A stretch of 64,000 bases of DNA from Phoronis australis. Lineage: Eukaryota; Animalia; Phoronida. Position 1 is the stretch's first letter, and the number at the start of each line of letters is the position of its first letter. Shown here in pieces: positions 366 through 61,614 of this stretch. Below the pieces are notes generated by a model. It was not told the DNA's origin. It saw only the letters and a list, made by a program, of their open reading frames with translations, and searched no databases. The position numbers were made by a program, and so were the translations under genes. The stretch is taken from the NCBI GenBank assembly GCA_002633005.1, contig NMRA01000833.1:1-64000 (forward strand). Direction: 5' to 3'.

Positions 366-488
366 AGGCAGCTAAAGTTCCGTGTCAATCTGGCGGAACA
401 CAATGCCCGGCTAATTCTGTCTGCAATCCATCAACCAAAGAATGTAAATGTAAATTGGGATATGTAAATTTCCAAGGTTCCTGCCAGG
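366..488 (+). CDS. Gene A module exon A1
   Basis: ttcag|AG...CAGG|gtaagt, 123 nt; EAAKVPCQSGGTQCPANSVCNPSTKECKCKLGYVNFQGSCQ. Confidence 0.9.
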
Positions 489-3400: not shown

Positions 3401-6400
3401 TTATTGTGGGACGTTGAGTATCGTGTTTTTTCTAAAAACATAATGCATGGTATACAGTGGCGGATCTAGGATATCACAAGGGGGGGCACAACATTTTGTC
3501 CGGCTGGAAGCATTTGCGCAAACTGAACCACGATTGTAGATGTGCATAGCACCGAATGGAGGGAGGTCGGGAGGGGGGTGCCATCAATTCTTAACAAATT
3601 TGTCGTATTTGAAACAGTCTTCAAATGCCCAAAAGACCAAATCCATTTTTCGTGTTGGCAATAATGACGGGATTGCCTATTAACATTCAAAATAATTTGC
3701 CTACGGTGGAGTCAGACCTCTCTGAGAATCATTCTACCAACGAAAATGGCCCACCAACACCACCCATCGTTGCAAGCAGTGATAGGCCCTATTATGTCAC
3801 CCGTTCCGGCCGTCAAGTGAAAACTCCTGAACGCTTTCTAGAATAAGTGTTTTAGACATAGTAACATCATTACACTCAGGGGTTGTAGGATGCTTCTGTT
3901 TGCTGTAAGCAAGCATTGATGTACTTTAGTATTAACCTTTGTTTTCTATAAGCTTTATCATTTTTTTNNNNNNNNNNNNNNNNNNNNNNNNNNNNNNNNN
4001 NNNNNNNNNNNNNNNNNNNNNNNNNNNNNNNNNNNNNNNNNNNNNNNNNNNNNNNNNNNNNNNNNNNNNNNNNNNNNNNNNNNNNNNNNNNNNNNNNNNN
4101 NNNNNNNNNNNNNNNNNNNNNNNNNNNNNNNNNNNNNNNNNNNNNNNNNNNNNNNNNNNNNNNNNNNNNNNNNNNNNNNNNNNNNNNNNNNNNNNNNNNN
4201 NNNNNNNNNNNNNNNNNNNNNNNNNNNNNNNNNNNNNNNNNNNNNNNNNNNNNNNNNNNNNNNNNNNNNNNNNNNNNNNNNNNNNNNNNNNNNNNNNNNN
4301 NNNNNNNNNNNNNNNNNNNNNNNNNNNNNNCCTGGCCCCCCCCTAAATCCGCCTGTGGATACACTGTAGAGGAAATATGCAGATCATTTGAACTTTCAGT
4401 AAATTATGTCCTGTCCTGGTACGCAAATAGATCAGCTCTATTAGCCACATTTGTCAGTGTGGTATGATTTACATTTTTCGGCTACATCAGAAAGAACGCA
4501 TCATGTTCACGTTTTCATTTCTTTTCTCCGAAACGGTGCCTACCCCCTGCGAGTCTCCTTTTTAGAAATTCTCAATCTAAGATGTCAAATCCCTGCAAAA
4601 GTTCTTCCAAACCCAAAAAGTGCTCAGGCTATTTTTTACTTTTACTAGCTCTTGATTTTACTCGAACACACAAAGGTGCAATGTTTGAGATTCCTGAGAA
4701 CACATTCACGCCGACTCGCGTGCGTCGGCTTGAATCCTTTTACACCTTTCTTTCTCAAAAGCCTCCTGCATTAATGGTGCACTTTAAGACCCCACTCATC
4801 AATGTTGCATTATCTTTTAAGACGTGTGGGTAGTACCCTGCGAGTCAGGAGGTGCGTCATGCAAATCCCACGCCACCTGTGATAAACCGACCAAAACGTG
4901 CAAATGTGACAAAGGATACATAGAGCACCAGGACAAGTGTGAAGGTGCGTTGAAAAAAGCTTCTTTTGCTGATACTGTAGCTAACACGACAAGTAACTCT
5001 AACCCCATCGCAGCACTGGGTACAGTAGTGAAAATAGGGACGTCGTTAAGATGAAACACCCTATTGAAGTCTAGGGCTAGTAATTAATAACAGCGGCAAT
5101 ATCAGTAACAACATTGATACTGTCATCTATTTGCAGCATTGGCGGTATTAATTGTACCATAGTACATCTGTTATAAGCAACACTGTGCCGCTACTTGTGG
5201 AAGTAACAAGCAATTCAAGTAACATTACAGTATTACTAGTACATCTGTTATAAGCAATACTGTTCCACTAATTTTGGAAGTACCAAGCACTTCAATTAAC
5301 ATTACAATATTATTTAGTACAAAAGTATATCTGTTATAAGCAATACTGTGCCACTACTTGCGGAAGTACCAAGCACTTCAAGTAACATTACAGTATTAAT
5401 AGTACAATAGTACATCTGGTATAAGCAATAATGCACCGCTACTTGTGGAAGTAGCAAGCACCTCAAGTAGCATTACATTAAAAGGACATTAGACCAAGAC
5501 TAGGACGATTCAAATTTGAATGTTTTTATTTTTTAATTTGTAATTCTTACCTTTGTAAATTATTTCGTGCAGAGGTTGGTAAAGTTGCGTGCGAGTCTGG
5601 AGGAACGCTATGCCCGTCAAACTCTGAGTGTGACCTGGCAAGCAAAAAATGCAAATGTAGTGCAGGATATGTGCACTATCAAGGCAAATGCCAAGGTAGG
5701 CTACTTTCTATTAACTAGCAGAGACAAACTTGGGCTGCCGCAGTACACATTTGGAAAGAACTTTCTCCAGGTTATATAATACCTGAATATACATTTACGT
5801 ACACACACCTGTACGTATAAATCGGGTATGAACCTGTAACTAGGCACGAGGGTGCTTAACTTTCTCCAGGCTATATAATATCTGAATATACATGTACGTA
5901 CACACACCTGTATGTATAAATCGGGTATGATCCTGTAACTAGGCACGAAGGTGCTTAACTTCGGTATCTCTGGACTGCCCAAAACACATTCAGTAGACAT
6001 TTTGGAAAAAGATGCAAAAGTGAACATTTCAGTAATTAGTTATCTATGTGTTAGCATTTAGCCATTGGACCGGTCATATTTGAATGAATTACCGAGGCAC
6101 AACCACTTGAGTTTCTTCAAACGTGATCAACATGGCATCTGTACTTCTAAAATAGTGAACTTATTCCATGTCAATTTTAGTCGTCGCCTACATATGTGCG
6201 AATGATTTGTAACTGTTCCGTTCATGACTGAAGGATGCAAACTTACTGGTGCAATCTTGACGTGTCCTAGAGTATGCTAATATCAGTAGCACCAGAGAAG
6301 AATGTTTCCATCCATCGCACCAAATCTCAACTCTCAAATACAAATAATGTACGTACATTTTTGGTTGGCAGACGCGAAGTTTGTGCGAGGATTGCATCTT

Positions 6401-7658
6401 AATGTCTTTATCACTGCTGTTAGGCTATGGCCCCATTTAGTGAATTTGTTGCTCAAAACAGAGACTTACGTATACTACTGAATGTTTTAATCACAGTTTA
6501 TTTAAAATGTTGTATAACTGGTCACTGTGGTCATTGCAGAAATAAATAAAGTTCCTTGTGCTTCGGGCGGAACACTGTGTCCAACAAACGCTGTCTGCAA
6601 TAAGAAAACGAAGTCTTGTAAATGTAAAGTGGGATATATTGACTTCCAAGGCAAATGCCAAGGTAGGGTTATCAGTGTTTCGTTAACTCTGTTGTTTGTA
6701 AGAAATGATGATTTGGACGACTTATTGAAGCGATGAGTTAAGCACAAATTCCTGCATGTTACTGCAGGTCGTCAAGCTCAATACAAGCTTGCACACCTCG
6801 AATAAAGCAACATCTGCAGTTACTGAAAAATATCAGAGCTCCAACTACAATTTCGAATGGAATTAAACGGTACGCCATTTAGTTGAACAGTGATTGGACT
6901 TAAAGAGTTTAAGATAAAGTTAAATGCCAATAAACCACATTTATTACATAACGTATGAACATTATTTTTTCGTTAAAACGAGGTTTGAGCTGTGTGAAGT
7001 GTTATTTACTGATACCCAATCAGCCTGTTTTTGTCCAAGCCGGCATATTCAATCGACACCTAAAGTGACATAAATCGACAGAACTCTGTCATACTTTGAC
7101 AAGTTTGGAAAATATCTTGCCAGAACTATCTTTAAAATGTGACAATAAAGTAGCGTTTTTGTAGAATTTTGTCGAAGTTTATGAGACGTTAGTGTACCAA
7201 ACAGCGAATTTTTATGCGTCGAGATATTTAATTGTTGGTAATTGTCACTCCGTCTGCTTAATCGACTGCAGCAATTGTTCTCAAGAGATTGGCCATTGTC
7301 GGAGTGAATTGCATGTACGACAACAGTCTGATATCATGGTCCCGTGCACCAGCTATGTCGGATATTGCTAGACTATAGACAGAGATCGTGTAACTTCGTA
7401 CTATAGTTGACATAACAGCCACAGGGTTCGCATACCAAAGTCAGTCGTTACACGAATGCTCAAAACAAAAACAGCACAGCGGTTCAGCACGGTAGTGAGC
7501 TATTCTAAGTCATATTCCTGAGTTGTATAAGGTCTGTGTTTTGTTAAATATGTGATCTGACATGAATTTGTTGTTTGTTTATAATTCTAAGAGGACCATG
7601 ATGGATATTAGCCTTTGGCTAAAGCATGTTTTACAATTATTGTCCTCTTTAAATAAAG

Positions 7659-7730
<72 letters not shown>

Positions 7731-10700
7731 TACTTGGGTTTTAATTATTTCAAATGGATCTGCTCCAGCGTTGGTCATGTACTGTTATGATTTGTTTACT
7801 TTCTTGAGGCTGACCTGTCCCCTGTAATCTATCCACACACGTTCTTAACAGGATGACACAGTGTTCACAGAAACATCCCAGAGCCAAATAACCATTTTCT
7901 AATATTGCAAAATTGTGATGAATTTCGTATGATTTCCATTTGTTAACCTTAGTGAATCACTAAAACAATCTTTACAACTGTTGTTAAGATTGTTTTCGTT
8001 AGTCACTTAGTTCAGTTGCACCACATTACTGTCCAGGTGATACAAGCATCAAAAAGTCCATTCAAACAATGGTATCAACAACCATGTTTTGTACTGGACT
8101 TAAGAAAGCAAAACTAGTTCTGTACACAACTGAAAATGGCCTTGATCACATTTGTTTTAGGTCAAAACAGAAGTACCACCTTTATTTACGTAGGCGCTAA
8201 TTTTAAAGTTCGTGTAAATGACTTTATTATGACGTAGATGTGCTACACAGTGAAAAGTTTGTTTAGCAAACTGTTGCACGGTTGCGTACATTTTACTTTC
8301 AGAAATTTCTTGAAACAGTACATGTTACCACTCGGAATGGGCAACTTAAAAACTCCGGAAGTTAGTCTTCCAAATTTTTATCTCTGATTAGATCAGCACG
8401 TACTAGGTTCACAAGCCCAGCACAGAAAATCAACTAGTTATCAACTGATTCTGAGCTTTACACTGGAATACTGGTACTCAAAATTTTGAAAACTTTTAAG
8501 TCTCCGTATTGCTCGCTCCAAATTGAATCTTACTTTGGAAATGCGCCATGTTTTTGTCAGACCTGTTTTACTAAGGTGTGACTTGCCTTTGGTGAAAGCT
8601 GGTATATTTAACTTAACTCGTCTTGGAAACAAGGGTTCATCAATAGTAAAACCTCTATCTGCCATAACTTTGTCTTTGGGTAAAAGGTATTTCAGAAATC
8701 CAGATTTTTGAACAATGTATTTGTCATTTGTCACTACCCTTGCCTCCAAAATGTTTTATATACGTACACATGGTGTACCCATTTTTGGTGCAATTGCAAC
8801 CATATACTTTACAGTATTGTGTGATTTGTACTGGCTTTATGTTTCACCCCCTATCAATGATTTCAAATCAGCTGATCTGTTACCAAATACAAAACACAAG
8901 CAGGCACACTAGCTCAGAAGGTTGGTTTTACAGGCAAGCTGTACTGACTCCAGTGTTTAGTGTAGCATGCCTGTAATGGCGTGACCTCAATATGGCGCTC
9001 CCCAGGAATTCGGCAGTTTCGGCAATGGAATATGTCTATTTTTATAGTGGTTAGACACCTCTGAGCAATTATGACACAGGATTGGTCTCAGAAATAACAA
9101 CAAGTAACTTGGTAACGGAAGCTACCCCTACCTACTAATGTCGGTTGATTTCTTGATTTCGTGTCGATTTCAGATGGAGTGTCAGTGTCTGCAGTGCGCA
9201 ACAGCAATGCGGCACATACTTATATCAGGTAGCTTTCCAAATAAGGAATTGAAGACTTTAACCAAGAAAGGATAATGCATCAAGTAGAGGCACGCTTTGT
9301 AGGAACATAGACCATTGTTTAATCAAGAGTTAATCGTTTATGGTTGGTGTATTTCAGCTATTGCAACTGTCCCTTGTGCGTCTGGTGGCACCAAGTGTTC
9401 AGAGAATGCATTCTGTGACACCAGTAGTAAAGTATGTAGATGTGCACCAGGTTACGTGTTGTTCCAAGGGAAATGCCAAGGTGAGTTCACTTGAACATCT
9501 TATGGCAAGGTCTGATGGAAAAAAAAGTTCGAGTGTGATCAGAAAGCAAGGCCGCCGGTTAGAATGAACGTTCAAAAGGCTTTAAGAAGATATTTTAGTT
9601 TATTTGGGACCCTTGGGAAATGCTTAATTGTTGGGTAATTTTGGAACATCGTATTTCAACATTGGCTGATGGGATTCATATGTATCTTACTATTAGTACG
9701 TAGTGTTATAAAAGTGCTGTTTGGAATTGTTTTTAAAATGTTCCACCTTTGTAGTCAGGCTCTCTAAAAGAAGTGACTTGCATGATTTTCATGAAAGTAC
9801 TCTTAGAAAATGAAATGATATTTTAGAAGACTTAAACAACATTCTTATATTTCACTTTGAACATTTATGTAAAATGAAATTTGATCTGGTTATGGATACC
9901 GTTGTTTTGTACCTATATTTAACTTAATTTCAAATTACACCCATTTAGTGATATATTGATACAAAGTATACAGCCGAATTCCAAAAGCTTTTACATTCAG
10001 TAAATAAATGATACTTTTAGTAGGTTAACATCTCTAGATATTTTGTTAAACACGCGGAACTGTCAATAATGTCCTAAGGTACTCACATAGTCGCTTACAA
10101 TAAATAAATAAATGCTTCGTCATGTACACTTTATGGTGAGTCATCAGCGCCTCTGTTTCATGCCATTTCCTTTTCCCTTCATCATATATTTTAGTGTCTG
10201 TAATCAGTGTTTGAACTTGACCTTGCAAGATGATTTCATATCAGTTAGAATCGCAAAATTTCGGCTATAACAAAACCTCTCACTATGAACTTTAATTTAG
10301 GATTAGTATGCAAGCTTATTTGAGAGAACATCTGTAGAAAGTTAAGCTTAAATCATACTAATTCTTTTTTAAGCAAAAGGCACAGTTCCATGTGAATCTG
10401 GAGGAACAAAATGTCCGACCAACTCATACTGTGATGTCTCTCAACAAGTATGCAGATGTCTTGCGGCTTATATCAAATATGAAGGCGAATGCCAAGGTAT
10501 TGTATGTGGTTTTTTGTCTATTATGGCTTGAGTTATTTTGGTTATACGTGTGGTTTTGTAAGCAACAGGCAGGTTTTAGATGTAGACGTCTAGAAAGACA
10601 CTGTATTGACAGATGGGACAATTAACGTACTTGTTGCGTTCGGGTGATAAGCCATATTGTGCTTTTATATAATTACAGTGTGTCAACCGTTGGTTTCTTG

Positions 10701-13700
10701 ATTTTGTAAATGGGTGAATTTCGGAACCTGGAGAACCTCAAGTTCAGACGTAATCGCAACAATTAAAGTATGCTAAAGAACGTTATTTCATCATGATTAC
10801 ACTTTTCTCTACCACTTAGTCTTGCCTGTTTCTTTGTTATGTTTACATGTATGTGTAAACTGAATATGTTCAGTGCTTGTACATTGTTATGTTTACATGT
10901 ATGTGTATACTGAATATGTTCAGTGCTTGTACATTGTTATGTTTACATGTATGTGTATACTGAATATGTTCAGTGCTTGTACATTGTTATGTTTACATGT
11001 ATGTGTATACTGAATATGTTCAGTGCTTGTACATTGTTTTGCACCTGATTCCTTCATCTGGGAGTAGAGCACAGACAAACTTTTACTCACTCTGAGTGAA
11101 TTTCTCTAAATGGCTGCGCTTGTCTTGTGCATTGGTCCCGCTATAGCCATATCAACAGGTTAAGACATGTAATGGTTTGCAAGCAGCTAGTCATCACCAA
11201 GGAACGTTGAACCATCTGGACAAGTGCGCGTGCGCTTATGTCTTGTCCTCGTGCCGGATATGCTTCATGCATTCTCAAATAGACCGCTGTCAGTTTCTTC
11301 TAGTTATTTAACGGAACGTGTTTTGGATCTTGGTTCGAACCAGGCTCAGTCGCTTCACTGACAGTCACTCTAGCTATTTCATTAAATTTTACCTTTGTCA
11401 AAATCAAACTGATATGCATTGTTGCCCACACATGTATATACAGTTGCATATTGCCGTTATCTCTGTCTGTCCGGGTGTCTGGCGACCGCAGCTGTATCTC
11501 CTAAACCCCTCACAGGATCTCAGTGAAATTTATCAGATGTACTCCAATGAAGCTAACGACAGATGACGATTTTAGGATTTCTATGAAATGTGGCACTTAA
11601 GCATAGGACGGATTTGAGGTATTTTGCCTGACCTAGTCGTCATTTTTATTGTTTTTGAGTATATTTTTGGCCGTCATTCCTTCAGTGTCAACCAAACCAA
11701 ACTCATGATGATTGTGAAAACTAACATATATGCTAGTGTGAAGATGACGTTGGACGATGACTTTCCGACGACATTGACTACTGTGGCGCCTGCCTCCTAG
11801 TGGCAGTTTTTTTGCACCCCCCACGTAGCTCTATATTCTAAACCCTTTGCGATATCTTTATTCAATTTTAGCAAGTGTACTGATATGAAGTTGATAAAGG
11901 CTGGTGACGACTTCCTGGCGGATCCGACGAAGGCTGTGCCACCTTGTGACAATTTCATTTTTTCGTTTTCCTCCATCTCTCTGAAGTTCACTGACGGATT
12001 TTTGTAAAAAATATTCAATAGCTTTGAAACCTATTAACTTTGAAATTTTCTCGTTTTTGCAAGAATTCAATGTATTATGCACCATCTAGTTGCCATTTTT
12101 ACTGCTTTCTAGTCTGTTTTTGACGTCCGGCCTTTTATCAACCAAACCACTCTAAGGATGAAAACTGACGTTTATGTTTCTCCTGTGAAGAGGAGGGCTC
12201 ATGATGATTTTCGGACCACTCAGACTTCCGTGGCTCCTAGTGCCAGTGTTTTGCATTTATGCCTTTATTTGCCAAACCCTGTACATGATCTTTATCAAAC
12301 TTGAAAGTGCATTTATAGGACGTTGACAACCGACAAAGACATTTGGATGGAACCTACTACCGCTGGGCTCACCTAGTGACATTTTTTTCGTTGTCCTCTG
12401 TATCATTGAAACTCATTTTCAGATTTTTGAGGAATAAAACAAATAGGCTTCTGTTAAGGAGACGACAAGGCCTTCTCATTTTGGGTGGATTTGATGTGTT
12501 CTGCACCAGTCTGTAGCCATTTTAACATTTTTGTGTACTTTTTTGACATCACCCTCATTATTAAAATTTGGAGACGTATTTGTGATGAGAAGACTGAGTC
12601 TGACCCCCCTAGTGGCAATTTTATTTTTTTGTACACGGCTGTATCTCCTTACCCTTTGTAAGGTCATCCTGAAATTTAGCTTATGTGCTCTTGAGCGGAT
12701 GGCAACTGATGACGGCCAGTTTCAGACCTACCCAACTACAACTGTGCTCCATAGTTGCAATTTTATTTTTTTACTTTTGCCTCTGTAACTTCAGATTTCC
12801 TTTATGTATTTTCATGAATTTGAGCAAAGAAGTTCTATAATGAAGACGACAGATCTTTCCTTTCTGTGATGCAGTCAACGTATTGTGCACCACGTAGTGG
12901 CCATTTTAATCATTTAGTCTGTTTTATTTCTTCTGCTTCTTCATCAAAAACTGTACATCCTAAACCCCTTGCAAGATGTTTGTGACATTTTGCCGTTTTA
13001 TTCATATTAACTTGACAGGTGTGCATTTGACTATTCCTGTGGTCCCTGATGGTAGTTTGCTTTTTTACTTTTGCCTTATTAGTTCGTACATGTATCTGTG
13101 GAGCTCTTTGATTATTTCCACAACATTTGGCAAATGATTATAAAAGACGACAACACCTTCCCTATCTTGGATGGGTTAAATGTATTCTGAGCCATCCAGT
13201 TGCCATTTTTAAGATAAACACCTCTAGAAGCACACTGGTTGCAGTGGATTTTGTAGGCGCATTTCAACGCTCCAGATTGCTCTAGTTTGAACTTGCTATT
13301 CAACAAAATTCAGAAAGCATGCATGCTTTGTTTACCACTGGAAAGCAGAATTAGTTTTACACGAAGGTCGACTGCTATATCACTGTGAGTGACAATATGT
13401 TTGTACATTTTAGAGCGTTCTAAAGTACCTTGCGAGTCCGGTGGTACACGGTGTCCTGCCAATTCATTCTGTAACACTGCTAAAAAAACTTGCCACTGCA
13501 ACTGGGGTTACATCTTATTTCAAGGCCACTGTCAAGGTAACATATGAAAATAACAAAGTTCCAGTTTTGTTGTTGACAACGCTAGTTGCTTTTTGCTGAA
13601 TTGAAAACGGTTTACTAATAAACTCTCCGAGTTGATTTGAGGATTTTATTAAGTCGTAAATGGTTTACTTACAAGCTCTCCGAGTTGACATGATTATTTC

Positions 13701-21219: not shown

Positions 21220-21638
21220 ATTGGCGGCGTTGCTGGTCTGGTAGAGCTTCCTTGCACTAGGTTTATAGTGCTTTTTTGTTCAGCAAGCCGCAGTTGGTCA
21301 CATACTGTGTGATCCACATAGGAACAATTACTCTGCTATAGAATTCGTTCAAACAGTATCAAGTAAAGACAAAAAACGGGAAACACTGTTATGGTGGCAG
21401 CACTTTTTATGTATTTGCATTTTTTCGAATGGTAGATAGTTATATTTAGATCATAATCGTATATCTTAGTTTAAACCTGGCTGGTGTTGTGGATATTGGT
21501 TCATAATGTACATCGCATTCGCCACTCAAAGCGCCACTGTACATTACTTTAGCGAGTTTGTTCTCAAAAAAAACTTAGCATTCACTGTTCTGAAAATTAC
21601 ACGTACTTACATGTGAAGTGATTGTGAATTTCGGGAAG

Positions 21639-21644
21639 AATAAA
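21639..21644 (+). promoter_or_regulatory. Putative polyadenylation signal of gene A
   Basis: AATAAA about 420 nt after the stop, followed by a GT/T-rich tract (tttttggtggttttttgtt) near 21680. Confidence 0.5.
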
Positions 21645-23856
21645 CAGATCGCTGTTGCCGAGAAGTCGACACAATTTCGGTTTTTGGTGGTTTTTGTTAT
21701 GTACGCCGAAAGAAACTAGGCCGACAGTCAAGTTCAACCAAGCTGGTTGCATGGCCTAACGTTAGATAGAGTTATTTAGGGGCGCTTAGACACTTTACTT
21801 TATCAGATTGTGAACGGATATTGCTTAATTTTCGACTGTGTTGAAATCCTAGCTAATTCAATGTGCTGGATACAGACTTCAGTATACACTAAAAACGATC
21901 CTATCAAATAGGCCTACGTGTATGCAGCATCAAATGTTGGTGTTGCTGGGATTTAAAAATGCTAAGGAAGTAGTAGAATGGTGGCATTGCATACATTATC
22001 TTTACTTGACAGACAATAACTAAAGGTTTTATAAGTGATGGCGCTTGATTTATGTTCTGTGGTAGGAAATGATTGAAAGCGGCTGTGAACTCACCTTCCG
22101 TCACAAAAATCAAAAATTTGGTTTAGACAACTTTGTCAAAATAGATACATGTATGATTATCCTACCAGGAAAGACCTGCCAGGCTCTAATAATTACTTGA
22201 ACGGCGTTTGCTTCAAATCTTTGAGGAAGTCGGTCAGTCTTCGGCTTTCCAAAAGCTATTTCTCATCTAAGCAACAGGAACAAGATGAACCCAAATTTAA
22301 TGTTTTAAGTGGTCTAAACAGGTTTTTCGACGGAAAGCTGGTTTATTGCCGCTTCAAGTGTTTGCTGTTTACGCTACTTTTTTCCGACTGTGGATTGTAA
22401 CCTGTGGAGCCGTTAAAACTATAGGACAAAAGAATTGTCTTTTGTTTCTGTCGTATCCATTGTTATACATGCATAAGCTATGAAATAAATGTTGGTCTGG
22501 TGTAAACTTCTTTCTCCTACATGTACTTGTTGCTTGTAAATGCTATTCGCGACAACTCACCGTTCCTTATTGCTCTAAAAGTCTAAAGTCAAGAAACGTG
22601 CTATGCCAATCAAATGAGTCACACACATTTCCTTACCATAAGGGCGTGGCTTCAAAACTTGCCTGGAGAAAGTTTTATAAAAGGTTGTAAGCCTATGTTT
22701 AACTAGGATTGTGTTATACTTTTGAGTATAATTTGCACGCAGTTCATTAAAGTGGCGAGTGATTGTGGTCTTGTAGCTTAAAGGGAAAAAATACCAACTT
22801 AAAAACGTCATGCAATATCCTAATAAAATGCTAATTGGGCACGCGACCCAATTAATAGCATATCCGGATAAAGTCAAAAATTAAATGCTACAGGCTTTCT
22901 AAAGACTGTATACTTTATCGAGTTTAATTCGATAGATCTGTACATTTCTGGCTAAAGACTTGCCAATGAGGTTTTCAACCGCAAAGGACCTGTGAACCGA
23001 CTGCACGCTAGCGAGCGAAATTCGTGTTATGATGTTAAGCGCCATGTGCGACCCCATTGGATGTAAAAGTTTTTGGCTCAAAACAAGCAATGGTCAAAGA
23101 GAAAGAAATACTTTCATTGTATTTGATTAAGGAAATGACTCAAGTTGATGATCTATACATGATTTGTCATACAAGATCTTCACTTTTACTGAAGGAAGTA
23201 AACGAAATTGATCGTGTCAAATCGAAATTTGTGCGCCGTTATTGCCGGTTTCAAGCCACGCGATTTGGTACGCGAGATACTTTCCATTTCAAGTTTCACT
23301 GGCGCAACGTCACCCGTCGCTCTTACGCAGTGCGGGACACAACAGAAGTTTCAGTCGCTCCAACTGAAGACAAATGAAAGCAAAGCTAATCGCAAATTCG
23401 ATAATACACCAGCCACGTCATTTATAAACGGGTAAACAAGTTGAAGACAACAAGTTAGGGTACTCCGATGGTTATGCAGGACCCTTGCAAAATGCCTCAT
23501 TTTAATTACGTTCAGATTTTCTGCTTTTCGCATTATCGACTGAAAACAGTAATTAGAATTGTTCTTAAAATGACCCAGTTTTGAATGAGGGATTATCAAT
23601 ATCATGGCCAATGGGAAAACATTCAAAGTTGTAGAAAACAAAAACAAATTGATACTTTGGAAAACTATAATGTGTATTTTTGACATTTTAATGGACATTT
23701 ATCAAAAACGAAATTTGGTCATGTTTTTGATATCGTTGTGTTTCTATAAGCGTACCTTTCCTTTTTGATAGTTTTTACTGAAAAACATATGGTCACCTGA
23801 CCCACTTAGTTGTAGTTTGTTAAAAAGTCAATATCAAGTTGTACAGATTTTCTTTC

Positions 23857-50300: not shown

Positions 50301-53300
50301 GCTGTGTCAGCCACGCTTTTTACAAGGTGTAAAATAGTTATACAAACATAGGTTTTTCTGCCTTTGCATCCGATAGTTGAATCCACCATGAACAATACAA
50401 TGCACTACAACGTAACTAAACACAATGTTACAACTCTAAAAAGCCAACAACACCAGGCAGTTCTAAAAATACAGAATAGTGACAGGGGAGCGTTGACACA
50501 CTGTCATCACAGAATGCAATAGCGGCAAATGCAATGTCGAGTTCTTGGGGATGTCGTTCACAGTTGCTAACGTGTCATTAGAATCATAAACTAGAACACG
50601 GAATTTCCAATGAGCTGCTGGAGTTGATTGTGATGACGTAATTAGTGGCTGGACAGGAATGGGGGTTCATATCAAGAGGAAGGGTGATGACAAAGAAGGA
50701 GGGAATAAAAGGAGGGAAATTTTGGATGATTTGATGTGTGAACGCACCCCAACAGCAATAAACTGTTAAAGTAAAACAACTTATAAAAGAACACAAACCG
50801 AGATCATGATGCTGTGACCAACTACACTGTCTGACTGAATAACTATTGCATTATCCTGTATTGGTTAAGAACTAATTAATCGTCTTCCAAATATCGTATG
50901 TAGCCGATGGTTGCATGTGCTGACGAAGAAGTCTTTGATAACAGTTTCTCTAGTACATGTTGTTAATTGAGAGTTATTTCAAATACATGTAGTTCTAACA
51001 TTTAGATGTGACGACGGTACCCTGCGAATCTGGAGGCCAAAGTTGCCCAGAGAATGCTGGTTGCAATATCAACTCAAAAATGTGTGTTTGCAAGGCGGGA
51101 TATGTCGTGTTCCACGACGAATGCACAGGTAAGTGAATAGCGACTAAGAATGATGGTGTGAACTGTCGGTACTGAGAATGCGTAATTCTGTGCTAAAATG
51201 TGTTTCAAGGCAATCGTACACTTTAATTACCAAAGCTGTTGCAATTTAATATAGCTGCCATATTTTGTTTAACTTATTGCAGAGGTTTGGACGTTACCAT
51301 GTGAGCTGGGAGGGATGAAATGTCCGGTGTCTTCAGTGTGCAATACGACTCGGAAGCAATGCAAGTGTAAAGCTGGATATATCAGATACAATGGGACGTG
51401 TACGCGTACGTGATCCTGTTAGTGTATTCGGTTAAGAGGAATGATTTACTTTCTAAAGAGTGAAAAGTTGACAATAAGCGTAGACAAATCATCTGAATCC
51501 TACTGTTGCAATATTGTATTTGAATATGGTCACCACTACGGTGTGGTCAACTAAAAACAAAAGACGAGTTCCTACTTTGGAAATGGTGTCATTACAAAGT
51601 GCGGTAATTCCTCAGTTAGTATATGTAAGTGTGCGTCTTTCCATGTTATTTGAAACACAACACTTATACTTTCTGCGGTCTCAATCAATGAGACTAGGCC
51701 TAAGTGTTCCTAGTTTCCACCACTTGCAACAACATTATGTTTGGTTATGAGGCACTGTGTCGTTTGGGAGATTCGAGTGACTGTGAATTACGCATGCAAC
51801 ACGAAATTAGCGCAGACCTACCGATTTTAACGTCTTTCAGATGAATCGACGGTTCCATGTGAGACGGGTGGATTGAAATGCTCTTCATCAAAAGTATGTA
51901 ACACAAAAACAAGGACATGTGACTGTAAACCCGGATATATAATACATAAAGGCAAATGTGAAGGTAAGCCAAGCTAAAGGCAAGTAACAGCTCGAAGTAA
52001 CTTGCAAGTTATAAATACGGCTGCAGAATGAATCGATGAGTACCAATATTTACGGCTGTGCTTTACCTTTAGCATAATTAAGAGCCTGTAAATCACCCTT
52101 TAAGATCCAGTTACTCAGTAAATACCAAGGGAATCTAGTTTGTTTCAATGGAGACTGCAACCGTCGAATGTGAAACGTTGCCGGAAGCCCGAAATCGGCA
52201 TGTCGGTTCTGATTTACGAATGTATTAATGGTCGAGGACGACTGGACCAAACGTTCCCAGACAGCAAGCAAATGCATTTGTACAGATTTGTAGCAAAGCC
52301 GAGCCTTATGCCCCTCTAAATCCACACCTTGCAAGTTGTATTTTAGGTTGTATTTTGGCAAGTATGAAATAATGACATAGAAAAAGCATTGGATGCAGAA
52401 CACTAAACTAGGGCCGTCCCAGATTACACCGCAATAGAACTCTCATTTGTCATGGAGTTAAGAAAGCGCGTTGTTCTCATTGCCCGAACTAACATCACGC
52501 ATCAACGGGTGTTTGTCAACTTTATTCAAGCGTCTCCCTGTCGGAGGTGCAGTCCAAAACACTACTGTAATATTTCGTTGACGTTGTAAGGACGGATAGG
52601 GTAATGCAGCTGGGAAAAAACTGCGAGGAATACAACAACAAATCTCAAGAGGAAATCCAAAGGCGCAAAAACGAGGCTACAAAAGTGCTTGGCGAAAATT
52701 GCGATACTGTGGTAAATAACGTGACATTCGATTCTCGTTGTGTAATAAGGGACAGTCCTCTTACAATAAAGTATTTTTGAGCAAAATTGTGTCCGATTGT
52801 AGTTTCATGATGGTGTTTGTGAAAACACTTACGAGGGATATGCTTGAATGCAACCGGGACGTTCCCATGGTGCGCTTCCGGGTGCAATGCATGTCTATGT
52901 CGAAATATGTACATTATCAGTCGTGATTAATACATCAATGGATTTTTTAGACATATGGGTTGTACCATGCAGCTCTGGAGGAAGGAAGTGTCCAGTAAAT
53001 GAAGTTTGCAACACCACAAGTAAAGAATGCAAGTGTAGAGTGGGTTATCTGAAATACAAGGGCAAGTGTGAACGTAAGTGAGGTTGTAACTTGTAGGGTA
53101 GCTGTTTTGTCATACTGCGAGAAAACAGTATCTATATTGTTTTTCGCCTTTTCCAGGGTATACTTTCCATGGCCGATTCTCTGAACTATAGCTTTGAAAC
53201 AAATCCTTGGGTCGGTAAATACTAATTAAAGCCAGCGGCACCAACTCAACACCGGTGCCCCGAAACTCCGAAAACCCACCGGAAATACTCCATGCCCCTT

Positions 53301-56300
53301 GAAATCATGCCCCGGAGAAATCAAGTTTCAGAACCTGGACTTGTTTTCCAGAGATAGTCCAGTTTGTTGCCGAACTCACTCCGACCTTCGAGGTCTGACA
53401 GTTCAGCCGCGATGGTAACTGACTCAAATAAAACCAATTTCATATAAGAAATTTGCATCCACGGTTAAGTGACCTCTTTCGGTGATTCTATCCAAATTGG
53501 TTATGAATCTTGCTTTGTTACCACAACACGTTTCTGTCACCAGGGAAATGAAACAATCAGTCGGAAAAAACACATTGAATGCCTTGGTCACATATAGGTC
53601 AACGACCGGCTGATACCATCCCGATATTTCAACACGATGTTGATTATGATCTGTATTATCAGGAAGAGATAACCAGGAAGGGACAACTAGCTAAACCGCC
53701 GTTTTCGGCCTCCTTCCCCGGTCTAATTTCAGGACTTAAGTTTCGTTTAAAAGGAAACAGATGATTTTATCAGAGAGATTAAAGCTTTTTCTATACAAGG
53801 ATATCAAAAAAATCACTTTGCAACCTTAAACAGTGGTGTAATTGTACTTTAAAAATATCGACTTCAGAGCACTCAATCGCAACTTCCCACACGCAGTCAC
53901 GGGTATTTAAGCTTTTCCGTCGATGTATAGATGGCGCAGTAGTCAAGTACTCCCTCATTTGCATATCAAATTTGCATGTGGGAGTTCTGAGACTCTCGTC
54001 AGTTGTTGGTCGAGCGCTTGAGTGGATAAAGCGGTGACCTCCCACTGAGAGCACGCGCTGATGAAGATACCACTCGATCGCTTCGCAATCAGGAGGTGAA
54101 AACACTCTCATGACCGCAGTTCTGAATTCCAGCTAAGCAAGCCCTATTTCGAGGAGCGGACTTTGAATTGTTTTCGTCCCCTGACAGTGGATTGCAGAGA
54201 TTAGAATGAGGTCAACATCAAACTTTCTGCGGCTACATGTCGTGTTGACAAAAGTTTGAAGTGTCAGAACCATAGACGGAGCGTGCGGGATGTCATGATT
54301 CCTGTTCTTCAGTTGACGAAAACATTGCTATTGGCATAAAGAATGGCCGTGGGAAATTAATTTTGAGGTGGACACCTGTATCCAAGAATAAATATTAATA
54401 CTCTGTAATATCTCATCCTCCGCGTTTCGTTTCTTTTGACGCTGTTTGAGGTTGCGGTATCGTGAAACAACACTGTCGGGTGAGAGAAGTTGCACCGAAT
54501 AATTGGAATTGGCTGCAGTTCTTCCTTTAGAATGCCCGGACTCAACTGTGTCGTTTTCTTGGCAAGTCTCTTGCCTGCCGAAATTTTTCTGAGCATTGAA
54601 GACATCGGCCTTCTCTTGCGCCAATCAACCTTTTATCTGCTCAGGCTACAAAAATGTTATGCCTAATTTTCTACCATTTTAGCACACTTTGTGGTTCTGC
54701 TACAGTTAGCACTGCCATAATCGTATTTCTTAATTCCGCCACAGTATGCATACTTGGAAGTTAGTTTTGCTAGGTGTTGTTCATCATTAAATGCCTCAAA
54801 TTCCTTGACGCCATGGACATTTCCGTCAACACAAAACGCACCCTTGCCATTCTTAAAAATTCGTATATATGTGCTATAATTGCTTCAAAGGACCGGCAGT
54901 AACCGTGGCTGGAATGTCGGTAGCTTCGCGACTAAGTATACAACTAACTCCTGTTGAAATTCCCCATACTTCAAAATTCTTGTTTGCAGGTGCTGGTAAT
55001 TGTCTTCAATGGTTTTATAATAAGAGACTAGAAATGCGAGTTGTCACTGCTTTACATTTTCACTGGCCACCTTGCTACATTCGACTTGCGCAATAGCCGA
55101 ATTAGTGTCCACATTTGTGGTCACGTGCCGGATACAGGCCCATGAGACAAGTTGCAGCAACAAATTCAGTACGAATCTATAAACCCTTTTACACGCACAA
55201 TTAAAGGTGAAAGCTTCCTTTTTTCATGTCACTTTTAGTACAAATAAGGTTCGTTGATTATCCCAGACACATTTTTCACTTAATTGCAACTTTTCGTAAT
55301 TTGATTAATTTCTCGTCATCTACTCCGGAAGTGACGTTTGGGGAGGCAAGAGTTTCGCGCCAATTTCTTTTCATTATAGTCTGACTGTGAGAGCTGTCGA
55401 GTGAGTCATTGTTCTACCTCGGTTGTGATCAGTTCGGTCGTCGTTTGCTTTTGTTTACAAGTCAGTCAACATGCCACGTCTCACACGCGCTTTGGGTACC
55501 TTGCGTCGCTTTCCGAAGGATGACACACTTCGCGTACTTGGCTAGCTCGTTCATGAGAAGAACGCAGAGTTACCCGTCCACGCAACGTACAAAGCAGTGG
55601 AGGGTTACCGAGTGTGTGGCAAGCATTGTCTGCCGTCAGATTATGACAGATATGCACGCTGAATTGATGAAGGTCCCTGCAAAACAACGCCTTAAGAAGG
55701 GTACCATACCGTCGCTGTCGATTCCCGGCAGTGCCCCGTCGCCAACCCCGAGAAGTGCGTTTTTGAAGCGAGAAGCCTTGGGAGCTGTGGCCACTATATA
55801 CACTGACTGGAGGCACTTCATCTGCTGTCACCCGTGCCTCCGAACGTACCCCATTGCGTGCAATTTCGGAAACTAGCAGTGATTCGCCCTGTGCTGTTGT
55901 CTCTGAGCCCAGAGCCTGTAAGCAGTCCTGCAGCGATGTTGAGTAGTGGGAGTGAATACAGGCCCAGTTCGACACCCAGTGAAGAGGACAGTTCGTCATC
56001 CAATGAACAGATCGGTGAGCCTAAGTTTGATAAGTTTATTGTGGACTTGTATTGGAGCTATTTGGAAGGTGCCAGGTGTGTGGCGAGGGAGTCACACGGC
56101 GGGATGCAAGCAACTTGGGTGCTCAGATCACTCTTCAGTGGGAGTGTGTCGCGGGACACTCAGGCAAGTGGGACAGTTCTTACTCTGTACGTGAGACAAT
56201 AATGAGTACACCCCAGTACGCAGCAACAGCGTGGCATGTTGACTGACTCCTAAGCAAAAGCAAACGACGACCGAACTTATCACAACCGAGGTAGAACAAT

Positions 56301-59300
56301 GACTGACTCGACTGCTCTCAGTCAGACTATATGAAAAGAAATTGGCGCGAAATTCTTGCCTCCCAAAACGTCACTTCCGGAGTAGACAACGAGTAATCAA
56401 TTAAATTACGAAAAGCAGTAAATAAGTGAAAAATATGTCTGGGATAATCAACGAACCTTATTTTTGCTAAAAATGACATGAAAAAGGTTGCCTTCGCCTT
56501 TAAACGCGCAAAACTGATACTGTATTTCTTAAACCTTTAATTTAATGCTCAAGCTATACAACGAATGCGTGTTGAAACACAACATTGACCTTGGACCAAC
56601 GATGGACTCCTTGCATCAGGACCTTAGTAAGCGGGGAGAGGGCGAGTGCCACCCCAAAAAAATTGCATGCCTCAGGGTCAAACCATGGCAACTGACAAAG
56701 GTGTGGGGCTGGGGAAAGACAAAAAAGAAAGACTTCGAATACTGATCAGAGCGAAAATTCAAGAGAACATTGACAACTCGGTTTCAGTGTATGGCTTACC
56801 ATTTGAGGGCCCTGGCCAGGACAATTGTTGGGTCTCCGTTTTTGCAGCATAGGTCGTCTAAGTGCCCTTGAAAATGTGCACTTAATCATTCATACATGTA
56901 TTTCGAAAATTCGAGAAAATTTGTAAAGCAAAAGTTTTTCGGAGCGTATTAATTCAGTCCAAGTTTTCCAGTGGTCCATAGGCGGTGCACTACAGGGGGG
57001 CTGAGGGGGCTTTAGCCCTCACTTTTTTCAGTACTGCGCCTTCTGTAAACCTCCGGCATGACACTACCAACTACTCATGAGGGGAAGTTGAGATTCCAAA
57101 TTCATCAAAAACACAAAACATTCGTGCACAGCACAGAAGCTGTCTTGTAAGAAATGGCGATGCGTCACTGAACTTAGTTGAAGCCTGAAGGCAAAAATTC
57201 GATCCATCATCTGACCACCATATCGCAAAGAAGGACCCTAAACGATAACAGGGGTATTTCTTGAATGTGGGGCAGCTCTAAATGCTTTATTGAATTAAAA
57301 ACTAGACTAATGAAATTCAAAAATTTACAAACCGTAGATCAAAAAAGAAGTTCAAGTCATTGCTCATAAATTTGGAAAGATTGTCTTTGCACTTCCTTGA
57401 TGCTTGTAGTTCCCAGTATTGTGCAATGAATTTAGGTTCTTCTAGACCGAATCGTTTGCTTGCCATTCCCGTGCACACTGCAAAGGCTGGACACGTTGTG
57501 ACTCAGTGGCGCACCCACGTTAAAAATAAGGTGTAGTCATGCAGTAGAATCCGCGCACAGTGATTGACGGGAAAAGAACTTGAACTGCACTGAGGGGTTG
57601 AAGTGTGTGCATTTTTTGGGACACGCGTTCATTTTCCCAGCCGCCCTGCAGAAGCTGGACCAGTGGCCGTGTTTCAACAAGGAATTTTGATACAGCTCTA
57701 TAGGCCAAGGATTTCGGGATCATATCTTTCCAAAAAATCTTCAGGAAATGACCGTATTAAAATGAACTTTTCCCGAAACTGGGTCAAAAAACGACCTTGG
57801 AGCCAGAACACGGGTATAGGTTCGAGTTAAGCCGCACGTCTCGAATGAATCATAGCGGAACTGACCAGCGACTAGCATTAGTTCGTCGAATTGCGCATGA
57901 ATCATAGCAGAGCTGACCAGCGACTAGCATTTAGTTCGTCGAATTGCGCATGAATCATAGCAGAGCTGACCAGCGACTAGCATTAGTTCGTCGAATTGCG
58001 CATGCATGGATCAGACTTCCCGGCGACGCCACGACACCGGCCACCGTGGCGGGAGCAGCTAATTTCTTGACTAACACCTGCTTCTAAATCTGGATTTAAG
58101 CAAAATGACGAAGTCCACGCATACACACATGCAAACGTATCCAAATACAATTAAATGTATTTTCATGTGAAACCATTCAATGTTCTTTGAACATTGACTT
58201 GTATGAGTTCTTAATTTTCTTAGATCTGCCCAATCAGATAGAACTGCGTTTCAAGTCATTCACTATAGGCACTCGAGGGTTCAAATTGGAAGCTCGCGCC
58301 GTATGACGTCGTATGACGTAGACGATGCGAGCCTCATTTGCATACATCAGTGACATCTGTTGGTTCAAAAAAGAGGATCATGCCCGAGTACATGCCTGGG
58401 AAGAGGCATCTTTTGGAAGGGTAAAACAAGTCATGTTCAAAGCATCCCAGTGCCATTAACATGAAGTCTTTGGGGACAAAAGTGGTGTCATTTTATAGCT
58501 AAAGAGTTAAGCTTTCAAACACAATGCTTGGATTTCAGACTACTTTAACATTTACTTTTGAAATCACCTTTGAAAATACGTTAAAATGCACTAAAACAGT
58601 TGTCCCTTCCTGGTTATCTCTTCCTGGTATTATGCAGAAGCCTCAAAACCAGACCAGAATTGCATACCTTGTTATTGTTCTTGACTGCGGTATTAATACA
58701 CTCTTTATGCACCGAAATAAACCATTGTGGTACGTACATCCATACCAAACAAAAATGCGCTCATACGCTTCTTGCGTGAAGATGGCCCGACATCAAAACA
58801 ATGCAATGACCCAGACTCTCACTAGAACAAATATTCGGCCGGTGTGTTACAAATATTTCCTATGTTGTTGTTATCAAATACCTTTGTATGAGACTTGTTG
58901 GAAATTCACGTTTTCAAGCAAATAATTAACATTTTGGGTCAATGTTTCTACTGATTCGTAGTGCGAACACTGTTTTTATCTCAAAAGTTGTCATGGAAGT
59001 AGGTTAGGTAATGAGTTCTCTAAACTTTGACAAACAGTCGCTCCAAAAATAGCGTCAAATCTGCTCATATCAACGATATTTACGATTTAGTAACTCACTT
59101 CTCACCAACCGTCCTGCTCGACAGCATCGCGTTCTATACATTAACAATCTAGACGATTCGTGCGTACTGACCCAAGGGCCAAGCGACAACCTTGATTAAT
59201 TCAATCCGTCAATTGCCCTTTTAGAGTTCCTCAAACAACACACAACACTTCTAGCCCACTAGCCAAAGTTCGACTCGCGTTCATCAACATCACGCGTGAA

Positions 59301-61614
59301 TAGGAATGCCTTCGCCTTTGTCTGGGTCTGATTTCAGCCTCGTCTTGAGCTTCGTTTACTGAGATTTCGCTAAACGCAGGGATGCGTTATGATACCATTA
59401 CTTGTTTTACGAATACTATTTGAAGCGCCCGGCTTTTCCAATATCTTAATTCACAAGTGTCTGCTCGTGTTTCAGCCGAGTCAATGGTTCCGTGCGAGTC
59501 GGGTGGATTGAAATGCCCTTCACTTAAGGTGTGCAATTCTAAAGCCAGGACATGCGACTGTATATCGGGTTACGTGATTTACAATGGCACATGTAAAGGT
59601 AAGCCAAGGCAGTCAATGCTTAGCATGGACACAGGTGTAAATATCTTGGTTACATTCAATTAAATGTGAAAACAAAATGTACAGATGCATCATAAATCCG
59701 TCTGAACTAGGTATCGGCACATTTAAACTCGGAAGACACTGTACCCGTGAAGACCGTGTGCAAACTCGGTGCTTCTGTGAAAGAAAGGCCCTACGTCCGA
59801 TGGTGTGGGGCAAGCAATTTTTGCGTTTCTATTTTCAGCTTTTTTAGGTGTTTATTATGAAATATTCAGTTTAATAAGTATACATGCCCAGAAAGTACCA
59901 AGAAGCATTGTATCTGGGTTGAATAAACGCAAAGAAATCTTTATACAATTAAACAAATATATTAATTAAAAAAACTATTGTTAAGATTACAATTACAAAC
60001 AATTACGAATATAAATAAACCATTGTCATACACAATAACTTATTTTACATGTATACAGTCTTATCGACTCACACGAAGAAATTTAATATTAAAACGAAAT
60101 TTTGATACAACATGTATTTCGAATAAAACCTTATTTTCATTAAGGTCGAGTTCTGTACAGCCATTTAGAAAAAATGTAATATATTTCAGGAAGATCTGAA
60201 TATTTTTTGTAAACATTGGGGTATTGTTTGAGTGTCTGGAAAAACTTTACCCTCTGCACCGCCCATACCGCACAAGCAAAGAAAACATGAGCAATTGTCT
60301 GAGTGTCTCCATAGGAACGCAGATGTGAAATATCATTAAAATTATGTCTAAATTTGTCGTTGTATAGCAATAGTCTTGTTCTGGCTCACTAATTTCATGT
60401 TCTTACCGGGAATTTCCGGAGATAAGACCACCCGATGAAACGCCCATGGGCGTTTATTTGGTGATACAACTTCTGGTGTCAGGTGTCCACATAGTGAGGC
60501 GTTTCTCCTGCAAATTTCTTCATAAAAACCCTCTCAGAGGCAGTCAACTTTTAGTAACAAATTCAGTTTGTAGAGCATTTATTATATCTTAAAACGAACA
60601 AAGTGTTCCCGGACTATGCTTCTTGGACTATGCATTTCTTAACATAGAATTTAAAAACAGTTTTAAGTAAAACATGTCAAAAACAGGAAACCCATTAATG
60701 AATACTATAAATTTTCGTTTACACGCCCCTGTTTTTAGAATAAACGTCCAGGAGTTTATTTAGTGTTACTAAATCGCCTAGAATTTTTCATTTTCCTACT
60801 ACACGCCAATGGGCTTATCTACGGAAAATCTTGGTATTCGTTGCAGACTGGCGCGTGCATTGTTATTTTCCCCTCAAGACTTTGAGCGGGTAACATTGTC
60901 AAATTGGAAATGACACCACCGTCGACTTCCTTGCGGGCCTTTTTCTACTGCAGAACAATATAAGCCAGTGATTCACGTATCTTAATACATGTAACAATGC
61001 CAAGATATGGTGTTTTTTGTTTTGTAGCTGTGGTTAAAGTTGATTAGATTACGGATTCCATCCAACTCAACAATAATCCAAGACTTTTAAACATTCTGAT
61101 TTCTGTTAAAGGTGAACCGTTTTTACTGGGTCACCTCATTAAAAACGTTTCTCACAACATCCAATATTTGTCATAAGAACTGTCCAACTCTAAGTTTTAA
61201 TTTTAAAACAAATCATTTAAGTATACAACATCCAAACCTTTTGCACAAAAATCGGATGTGGGCGGCAGTGTTACCCGCTTTCTACTGCTACAGTACATGT
61301 GTTGTTCTTAATGTTGACCTTACGTGTGCAAGATCTGTGTCAAATTCAGCGTCGTGTTCATGAATGACGAAGAGCTTGGTTTAAACTAGTGCCCAAAACG
61401 TTTTCTTACAAATCAGCAAGTCTTCTAAACGGATGAGAACGTCCGCAATAGGTCATCCATCAGTTTTCACAAAACATGATGTACTTCGCAGATATATGGA
61501 TTGTTCCGTGTGAGTTTGGAGGAAGAAATTGTCCAGTAAACGGAGTTTGTAACACCACAAGGAAAGAATGCCGATGCTTGGAGGGTTATGTGAAATACAA
61601 AGGAAACTGTGAAC
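35257..61614 (+). CDS. Gene B span (continues past window): module + 5 EGF/cbEGF + at least 9 modules; paralog of gene A
   Basis: 15 phase-1/phase-1 exons with canonical splice sites forming one open frame with no stop. Confidence 0.82.
36388..36522 (+). CDS. Gene B cbEGF exon B2
   Basis: aaag|...|gtgaga; [45 protein letters not shown]. Confidence 0.88.
37131..37292 (+). mobile_element. Short GC-rich MITE (aggggtgcatccagg...taaatgcgccactg)
   Basis: Imperfect TIRs and G/C-run subterminal motifs resembling the 1425 element. Confidence 0.5.
37293..37361 (-). mobile_element. tRNA-derived SINE head or tRNA pseudogene
   Basis: Minus strand gtgtgacttagtttgatagg...gaggtcgtGGGTTCGAGTCCcactgg carries a B box and a weak A box; stems imperfect. 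Confidence 0.5.
38422..38541 (+). CDS. Gene B EGF exon B3
   Basis: tgcag|...|gtaaat; [40 protein letters not shown] (GYxGDGxxC EGF_3-type). Confidence 0.88.
38591..38712. repeat. Tandem repeat, ~2.5 x 48 bp
   Basis: act(t/a)aatgttccatcagatgaagctt.tccttgaa repeated. Confidence 0.8.
39799..39918 (+). CDS. Gene B cbEGF exon B4
   Basis: aacag|...|gtaagg; [40 protein letters not shown]. Confidence 0.9.
39903..40309 (+). repeat. Minisatellite, 11 x 38 bp, whose unit spans the exon B4 splice donor
   Basis: ggtagagagtgtttag|gtaaggagtttacacatgcact at 39903, 39941, ... 40283. Confidence 0.95.
41325..41444 (+). CDS. Gene B cbEGF exon B5
   Basis: ttaag|...|gtaata; [40 protein letters not shown]. Confidence 0.9.
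41564..41698 (+). CDS. Gene B cbEGF exon B6
   Basis: tccag|...|gtaagg; [45 protein letters not shown]. Confidence 0.9.
42201..42633 (+). mobile_element. Tc1/mariner(pogo)-like MITE
   Basis: TIRs ccgggagtttc...ggaaaatcccgg|ta; inverted relative at 60406-60834. Confidence 0.65.
42723..42842 (+). CDS. Gene B module exon B7
   Basis: tgcag|...|gtaggt, 120 nt; [40 protein letters not shown]. Confidence 0.88.
45465..45587 (+). CDS. Gene B module exon B8
   Basis: tttag|...|gtaagc, 123 nt; [41 protein letters not shown]. Confidence 0.9.
46262..48109 (+). mobile_element. Kolobok, second copy of the 31163 family in opposite orientation
   Basis: TTAA|AGGAGAATGCC ... GGCATTCTCC|TTAA; THAP CCYIAV..CPN...[10 protein letters not shown]...HLRVCGRHF with a stop; KolX start [10 protein letters not shown] on -. 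Confidence 0.88.
48257..48379 (+). CDS. Gene B module exon B9
   Basis: tttag|...|gtaagt, 123 nt; [41 protein letters not shown]. Confidence 0.9.
51006..51128 (+). CDS. Gene B module exon B10
   Basis: tttag|...|gtaagt, 123 nt; [41 protein letters not shown]. Confidence 0.9.
51283..51405 (+). CDS. Gene B module exon B11
   Basis: tgcag|...|gtacgt, 123 nt; [41 protein letters not shown]. Confidence 0.88.
51841..51963 (+). CDS. Gene B module exon B12
   Basis: ttcag|...|gtaagc, 123 nt; [41 protein letters not shown]. Confidence 0.9.
52951..53073 (+). CDS. Gene B module exon B13
   Basis: tttag|...|gtaagt, 123 nt; [41 protein letters not shown]. Confidence 0.9.
55205..56499 (+). mobile_element. 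Kolobok-type element with ~270-bp inverted ends; THAP/transposase remnant
   Basis: TTAA|AGG...CCT|TTAA; FPKD...[10 protein letters not shown] and [10 protein letters not shown]...[13 protein letters not shown] fragments. Confidence 0.85.
57846..58002. repeat. Tandem repeat, 3 x 52-53 bp
   Basis: atgaatcatagc.ga.ctgaccagcgactagcattagttcgtcgaattgcgc. Confidence 0.9.
59476..59598 (+). CDS. Gene B module exon B14
   Basis: ttcag|...|gtaagc, 123 nt; [41 protein letters not shown]. Confidence 0.9.
60406..60834 (-). mobile_element. MITE related to 42201-42633, inverted
   Basis: ta|ccgggaatttccggagataag...cttatctacggaaaatcttgg|ta; shared cgcccatgggc and gccaatgggc blocks. Confidence 0.65.
61492..61614 (+). 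CDS. Gene B module exon B15
   Basis: cgcag|...|gtaagt, 123 nt; [41 protein letters not shown]. Confidence 0.9.

Follow-up and report, generated by a model that had tools for sequence, protein, structure and literature searches.

A 64,000-nt stretch of the Phoronis australis genome (contig NMRA01000833.1 of assembly GCA_002633005.1, positions 1-64,000; referred to below as the window) contains two tandem genes, here called A and B, in which a 41-residue, six-cysteine module is repeated over 23 exons. Both genes are incomplete within the window, and both are spliced and expressed. With a probability of roughly 0.55, their products are considered to be lineage-specific paralogues, basic rod proteins rich in disulphides that are secreted into a chitin-containing matrix, the gene A protein being probably held on chitin through its terminal domain. 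Secretion, fold, chitin binding and location of the two proteins are what we infer in this reading.

The 23 module exons are all on the + strand and span positions 366-61614. When delimited by their AG/GT ends, 21 of them measure exactly 123 nt and the two others 120 nt (42723-42842) and 117 nt (17796-17912). All 23 are in phase 1-1, the phase being confirmed by reads at the joints with RNA coverage, and donor sites are GT throughout save for one GC (after 15248-15370). Six cysteines with a CxC are present in every module, and the spacing Cx6Cx5Cx6CxCx10C in 22 of 23, the exception being the exon at 17796, where x4 replaces the second x6. In a six-frame scan, this exact spacing was found 22 times in the window, always on the + strand, and not once in each of 30 base shuffles of the window. 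A profile built from the modules retrieved 23 copies at 42-66 bits, the window otherwise scoring no more than 4 bits. VPCxxGG occurs in 19/23 modules and CxxGY in 17/23 (CxxG[YF] in 20/23); Lys and Cys make up 10.5% and 15.0% of module residues, and the net charge is +2 or more in 19/23 modules. The exon number and lengths, cysteine spacing, VPCxxGG and GY motifs and Lys-richness of many modules, as claimed in the original prediction from the bare DNA, were thus all recovered. The N-terminal calcium consensus is found in none of the 23 modules, and the O-fucose consensus (typical of Notch-pathway EGFs) in just one.

EGF-like domains are characterized by six cysteines, a C4-x-C5 spacing and a Gly-aromatic pair after C5, and their fold by disulphides 1-3, 2-4 and 5-6; in metazoans, each EGF module usually occupies a symmetric exon of its own, in phase 1-1. 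Pfam searches returned mostly sub-threshold EGF-type matches and partial EB matches, with one module giving no match at all. EB (PF01683) and MSP1-type EGF (PF12946, EGF_MSP1_1) were the best Pfam matches of most modules, but their cut-offs were passed by only 1/23 (24.3 bits for PF01683) and 2/23 modules respectively, and those of PF00008 and PF12947 by none. An identity as EB module was rejected, as a single module exceeded the cut-off and the matches span only about positions 20-52 of the 52-position model, that is its last ~30 positions. A profile of all 23 modules matched NELL1 EGF1-3 in the PDB at E 6e-8. A structure prediction, one of the checks proposed with the original prediction, gave a model with a pLDDT of 87 and a beta-hairpin, for which Foldseek returned nothing at E 0.001 or better, its weak list (best E 1.7) being headed by EGF-like domains. 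The top match of a VIA fold search, also weak, was the Pfs25 EGF (Z 3.5, rmsd 2.2 over 38 residues), with TIL-type folds close at Z 2.5-2.6, and the best neighbour in the Atlas was an unnamed cluster, 22% EB, with a score of 0.91. The module is therefore filed here as a putative calcium-free EGF-like variant, and as no new domain class, because of its EGF-type, though weak, Pfam, PDB and fold matches combined with the CxC, the Gly-aromatic pair and the phase 1-1 exon. The candidate new family of the original prediction does not extend to a new type of domain, and no named orthologue was found for it.

At the sequence level, the module is isolated. Nothing closely related turned up among 1.84 billion representatives. 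Homologue searches gave 0 of 980 candidates with the module alignment and no candidate with the CBM14 exon, both being weak negatives restricted to proteins of at most 2000 aa. The module profile matched 85 proteins with an E-value of 0.001 or below. In the 215 proteins fetched in all, no single domain exceeded 28.8 bits, versus 42-75 bits for window modules in leave-one-out tests, and the exact spacing occurred in 0/215, hence the conclusion that no orthologue is present among them. Bacterial-type proteins with VPCxxGG repeats (P0009, P0022) and a clam protein with V-x-C-x-x-GG modules (P0012) were rejected as relatives, since their cysteine spacing differs. Searches with the cbEGF profile retrieved generic fibrillin/LTBP proteins, with no lineage signal. 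In line with the original prediction, in which the architecture was not recognised as a named gene, no full-length orthologue appeared in the profile search, and the combination of EGF array, cbEGF and CBM14 was not found under a name in those parts of the literature covered by the search, supplements and most subscription journals lying outside its scope.

RNA evidence was taken from four runs with the same organism label (X1 as contigs; X2, X3 and X4 as reads, these three from one study), mapped over 15210-24466 (3' part of gene A) and 34460-39885 (5' part of gene B); joints, loose ends and variants given for gene A and for the gene B leader are those among the rows listed. Of 28 introns predicted for both genes together, eight were confirmed by reads within these two regions and one was contradicted, so that spliced transcripts, whose absence would have spoken against the original prediction, do exist.

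In gene A, whose 5' end lies upstream of the window, nine module exons of 123 nt were delimited on the + strand by sequence, splice sites and profile scores of 54-66 bits (366-488, 1011-1133, 4822-4944, 5573-5695, 6540-6662, 9358-9480, 10374-10496, 13414-13536 and 13924-14046). They are followed by four module exons at 15248-15370 (with the GC donor), 15580-15702, 17376-17498 and 17796-17912 (shortened), a 147-nt cbEGF exon at 18274-18420 (PF07645, 42.3 bits for a cut-off of 27 bits), and a last coding exon at 21044-21219 encoding a CBM14/ChtBD2-type domain and the stop. The 3' UTR runs from 21220 to approximately 22500, as judged from read depth by bins, with an AATAAA at 22484. All five expected joints (15248>15580>17376>17796>18274>21044) were recovered on the + strand, from one contig in X1, 13-33 reads in X2 and 6-12 reads in X3; X4 gave none over the same mapped region. 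The joint 18420>21044 is carried by 20 reads in X2, 6 reads in X3 and one contig in X1, which confirms that gene A ends in cbEGF and CBM14. The intron 15370-15580 is a read-confirmed GC-AG intron of 209 nt, and the cbEGF exon extends beyond the usual end of the domain by a short basic tail, GKKDLK, before CBM14. The predicted protein has 637 residues with no internal stop, 90 Cys and a predicted pI of 8.6; no membrane segment was detected in the part of gene A within the window (highest 19-residue hydropathy 1.11), and the stop comes right after CBM14.

A loose end before 15248 (one contig in X1, four reads in X2) reads as the C-terminus of a module in phase 1. No counterpart of this spliced exon was found in the window (best match 22/30 letters), and its existence contradicts the predicted intron 14046>15248. 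The further module exon probably sits in the 686-N assembly gap at 14524-15209, just upstream of 15248. The X1 contig extends 1013 nt ahead of 15248, with room for about 8 modules, and gene A thus probably consists of 14 or more modules, then cbEGF, then CBM14. An interpretation of 29 extra letters of the X1 contig as a branch between two near-identical first exons was dropped, the 3' ends sharing only 7 letters.

The CBM14 domain of gene A scores 27.2 bits against PF01607 (cut-off 22.1 bits) and matches chitinase CBM14s of the PDB at E 2e-4 and tachycitin at E 0.022. Its C-P-x4-F-N...C-D-W-P hairpin aligns with that of chitinase CBM14s, Phe and Trp included, and its Atlas neighbours carry PF01607 (best score 0.89). 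The domain has six cysteines, yet these do not follow the canonical six-Cys register.

Gene B consists, within the window, of one module, five conventional EGF exons and nine further modules, all on the + strand. The first module (35257-35379), joined to the next exon by 35379>36388, is the most divergent of the 23, with a leave-one-out score of 42 bits and a long branch. The cbEGF consensus comprises D/N-x-D/N-E/Q-C and C-x-D/N-x4-Y/F-x-C. Four of the five conventional exons (36388-36522, 39799-39918, 41325-41444 and 41564-41698) have the full consensus and a Pfam match, with joints up to 39799 confirmed by reads, and the fifth (38422-38541) encodes an ordinary EGF, as indicated by Pfam, with read joints. 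When the exon at 18274 of gene A is added, both consensus parts and PF07645 are thus found in 5/6 non-module EGF exons, the exception being that at 38422. The gene A cbEGF and two of those in gene B belong to a shared long 7-6-8-1-11 subtype, with 48% identity between A and B. The nine following module exons, at 42723-42842, 45465-45587, 48257-48379, 51006-51128, 51283-51405, 51841-51963, 52951-53073, 59476-59598 and 61492-61614, were delimited by sequence, splice sites and profile. Over 34460-39885, each of X1, X2 and X3 yielded all three expected joints, and X4 had none of them. The predicted protein has 618 residues, no internal stop, 90 Cys and a predicted pI of 8.0.

Genes A and B are both on in X1, X2 and X3 and off in X4, with a B:A read-depth ratio (from rescaled bin means) of ~3 in X2 and ~10 in X3. 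The separate ends of the two genes and these unlike ratios speak for two transcripts that are on, and off, in the same runs, and the tandem pair originally proposed is confirmed by the stop and 3' UTR of gene A, the 5' end of gene B and the splicing of both. A single gene with an optional CBM14 end, in which 18420 would be spliced to 35257, was also considered; no such joint or loose end was found among those listed. On the module tree, which is poorly resolved and weakly supported, A and B modules are intermixed. Synonymous sites are near saturation except in recent pairs, for example 366/1011 (87% identity, flanks included) and the exon pair 51841+52951 / 59476+61492. For three duplicate pairs, dN/dS was about 0.39, 0.10 and 0.23, the latter two in gene B; duplicated modules are under purifying selection. 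The first two module exons of the window also lie, together with flanking intron, in a recent tandem duplication (222-776 / 869-1417, 78% over 572 nt).

The remaining oddity is the abundant 5' end of gene B, which has neither start codon nor signal peptide. An expressed leader on the + strand (34744-35256) was delimited by depth, molecule ends, indels, the X1 contig and reading frames. Many molecules end at 34744 in X2 and X3, and reads run unspliced from there to 35257 at depths of 45-87 (X2) and 92-147 (X3), the coding exons that follow having depths of ~82-97 and 140-172; in these reads, the module at 35257 does not stand as a free 123-nt exon but forms the 3' part of a longer first exon. 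The leader contains in-frame stops and six short upstream AUG frames, and 1-2 nt indels occur in a third to half of its reads. In the X1 contig, at least 254 nt from elsewhere are joined at the AG acceptor before 34906, with 34906-35256 still retained. Neither a signal peptide nor an in-frame AUG was found before module 1 in the 5' forms listed, and three weak signal-peptide candidates upstream of gene B are unconfirmed. A possible linker exon of 63 nt (34906-34968), whose frame matches that of module 1, was rejected, as no joint among those listed supports it and a common 1-nt deletion lies inside it. A minisatellite of 29 units of 29 nt (33613-34457) is located just upstream of the gene B start.

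Gene B could on these grounds be a duplicate that is truncated at its 5' end or has a shifted promoter, its abundant transcript either being non-coding or giving no secreted product, with gene A being the only functional matrix gene. This explanation, which is compatible with a functional A and is judged rather unlikely, would account for the unspliced leader read at high depth from ~34744 through 35257, for the indels and missing in-frame AUG, and for the retention of 34906-35256 in the X1 contig as well. It is opposed by the fact that all 15 gene B exons are open with their cysteines kept, by the low dN/dS of the gene B pairs (which may however predate the loss), and by the upstream exon joined at 34906 in X1, since an isoform with a signal peptide may exist beyond the joints listed.

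Several observations weigh against the interpretation of A and B as secreted chitin-matrix proteins. In the dominant 5' form of gene B, module 1 is preceded by in-frame stops, and the first Met in the reading frame is reached at residue 110, within an EGF domain. A signal peptide was seen for neither gene (the start of gene A is outside the window, and the listed gene B 5' forms have a leader without AUG), so that secretion is shown for neither. The CBM14 domain has no Cys after the second Cys of the aligned chitinase domains (their third Cys) and an extra Cys near its end, two before the fifth; chitin binding may therefore be altered. The Tyr content is only 3.1%, hence a DOPA glue is not indicated, and 5/7 coding variants among those listed change the residue. 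Concerning the shell, chaetae, tube or cuticle named as possible locations in the original prediction, nothing in the analysis points to any of them in particular.

The same parts might instead compose soft-barrier or defence molecules, either within a chitin-meshed mucus of the gut or epidermis or as a chitin-sensing opsonin, the basic EGF array binding mucins or microbes. The modules are basic and Cys-rich, several variants are non-synonymous, and CBM14 is also found in immune effectors, which include tachycitin and mytichitin according to PMC8878817, tachycitin being itself among the matches of the gene A domain. This explanation is nevertheless held to be unlikely: no catalytic or known recognition domain is present in the window, and a lone CBM14 after 14 or more spacer modules would better fit a tether.

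The reading frame of gene B is open at its last donor (61614), its 3' end being outside the window. Gene B could consequently run into ZP, membrane or cytoplasmic domains and encode a cell-anchored tether or receptor (Dumpy-, Mua-3- or Notch/MEGF-like), of which A would be a secreted paralogue. Dumpy/Mua-3-type tethers have a membrane segment, plus a ZP domain in Dumpy. Weak Mua-3-EGF and Dumpy-like neighbours were indeed obtained (Pfam below cut-off, Atlas scores under 0.9). Within the window no membrane segment was detected in gene B (highest 19-residue hydropathy 0.93). The likely paralogue A stops after CBM14 without the segment typical of these tethers, and the near absence of the O-fucose consensus (1/23 modules) also speaks against a receptor, which makes this an improbable outcome. 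An assembly artefact, with one gene split or pieces mis-ordered at N gaps, is very improbable: despite four N runs in or between the genes and one spliced exon that the window lacks, gene A is closed by a stop and 3' UTR and gene B opens with a separate 5' end, the X1 contig is unbroken through 18420>21044, the B:A ratio differs between X2 and X3, and no module is duplicated above 87%.

EGF-like repeats in tandem are a recurrent feature of cohesive proteins of invertebrates, such as mfp-2, Sbp9 (49 EGF-like repeats), sea star Sfp3/4 and ascidian APAP-1 (PMC12817120). These resemble A and B by a long six-Cys EGF-like array, the lack of a visible membrane segment and a cohesive role (for A and B, a likely one), but no sequence link was found, and A and B differ by the terminal CBM14 (in A), the fixed VPCxxGG start and the low Tyr content. 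The shell proteome of a brachiopod shows enrichment in EGF and ChtBD2 domains (PMC13425148), and transcripts of the anemone pedal disc in the EGF and chitin-binding superfamilies (PMC6626399), in both cases in separate proteins as far as stated; ChtBD2 is also enriched in a tubeworm tube proteome (PMC8476170). Among shell matrix proteins, Pif/BMSP are defined by VWA, CBM14 and laminin G, of which VWA precedes and laminin G follows the CBM14, and PifCCP has sushi repeats (PMC11291548). They share with gene A a CBM14 plus a run of small disulphide modules; unlike them, gene A has nothing after its CBM14, and no VWA, laminin G or sushi exon was found in the window, the 5' end lying outside. Fibrillin/LTBP proteins have full-consensus cbEGF domains, as A and B do, and fill the cbEGF-profile match list, but the likeness is generic (35-64% over one domain). 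TB (8-Cys) domains, which in these proteins lie between cbEGF runs, were not found among the 30 exons put through the Pfam scan (both genes being incomplete in the window); the calcium consensus is lacking in all 23 modules of the phoronid pair, and PF01607 is present in none of the 120 matches listed.

If A and B are indeed rod proteins of a chitin-containing matrix, each 41-residue module would fold as a calcium-free EGF-like domain and the modules, placed end to end, would form an extended chain, which calcium binding by the cbEGF domains would stiffen. CBM14 would clamp the gene A chain to chitin fibrils, and the Lys-rich surface could bind acidic partners or undergo cross-linking, which would provide a cohesion like that of mussel mfp-2 or scallop Sbp9. 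Repeated duplication of a symmetric exon would have enlarged the arrays. A bolder variant, considered speculative and improbable, is a lineage-specific self-assembling family, in which the calcium-free, Lys-rich VPCxxGG variant would polymerise into a fibre or glue, A being fixed on chitin through a rewired CBM14 and B, of which there is more and which is perhaps produced from an AUG-less 5' end, extending it.

Several repeats were observed in and around the two genes. Gene A introns contain a DDE_Tnp_4 (Harbinger-type) transposase fragment (8441-8755, - strand, E 1.4e-13) and, before the CBM14 exon, a degenerate reverse transcriptase (RVT_1) fragment (20100-20567, - strand). The transposons, like the introns and the EGF and CBM14 domains, are consistent with invertebrate DNA. 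A repeat at 23858-24117 and 26153-26273 is expressed mainly in X4, where both genes are silent. Inverted copies (74-77% identical) with a THAP-domain remnant are located at 31157-33266, between the genes, and at 46258-48115, inside gene B. A short interspersed repeat (36990-37360) is abundant in each of the four RNA runs, both strands being represented; its segment 37108-37301, missing from many reads of other repeat copies, looks like a nested insertion. The minisatellite at 39890-40309 (11 units of 38 nt) includes in its unit the donor after 39799-39918, so that donor-like sites recur along the intron. Finally, an element with inverted ends of ~280 nt (90% alike) lies at 55200-56503, with a further partial copy at 63817-64000.

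The pair is real, expressed and apparently unnamed, yet it combines known parts in a known way, and general views would be unchanged, exon-shuffled EGF/CBM14 mosaics being expected. If the matrix interpretation is true, the two genes would represent an independent case of an invertebrate chitin-linked matrix or adhesive derived from an amplified EGF-like exon. Their uniform 41-residue module would also lend itself to tests of how cohesion arises from EGF domains in tandem, and the genes would be candidate markers of the cells that secrete the animal's chitinous structure.

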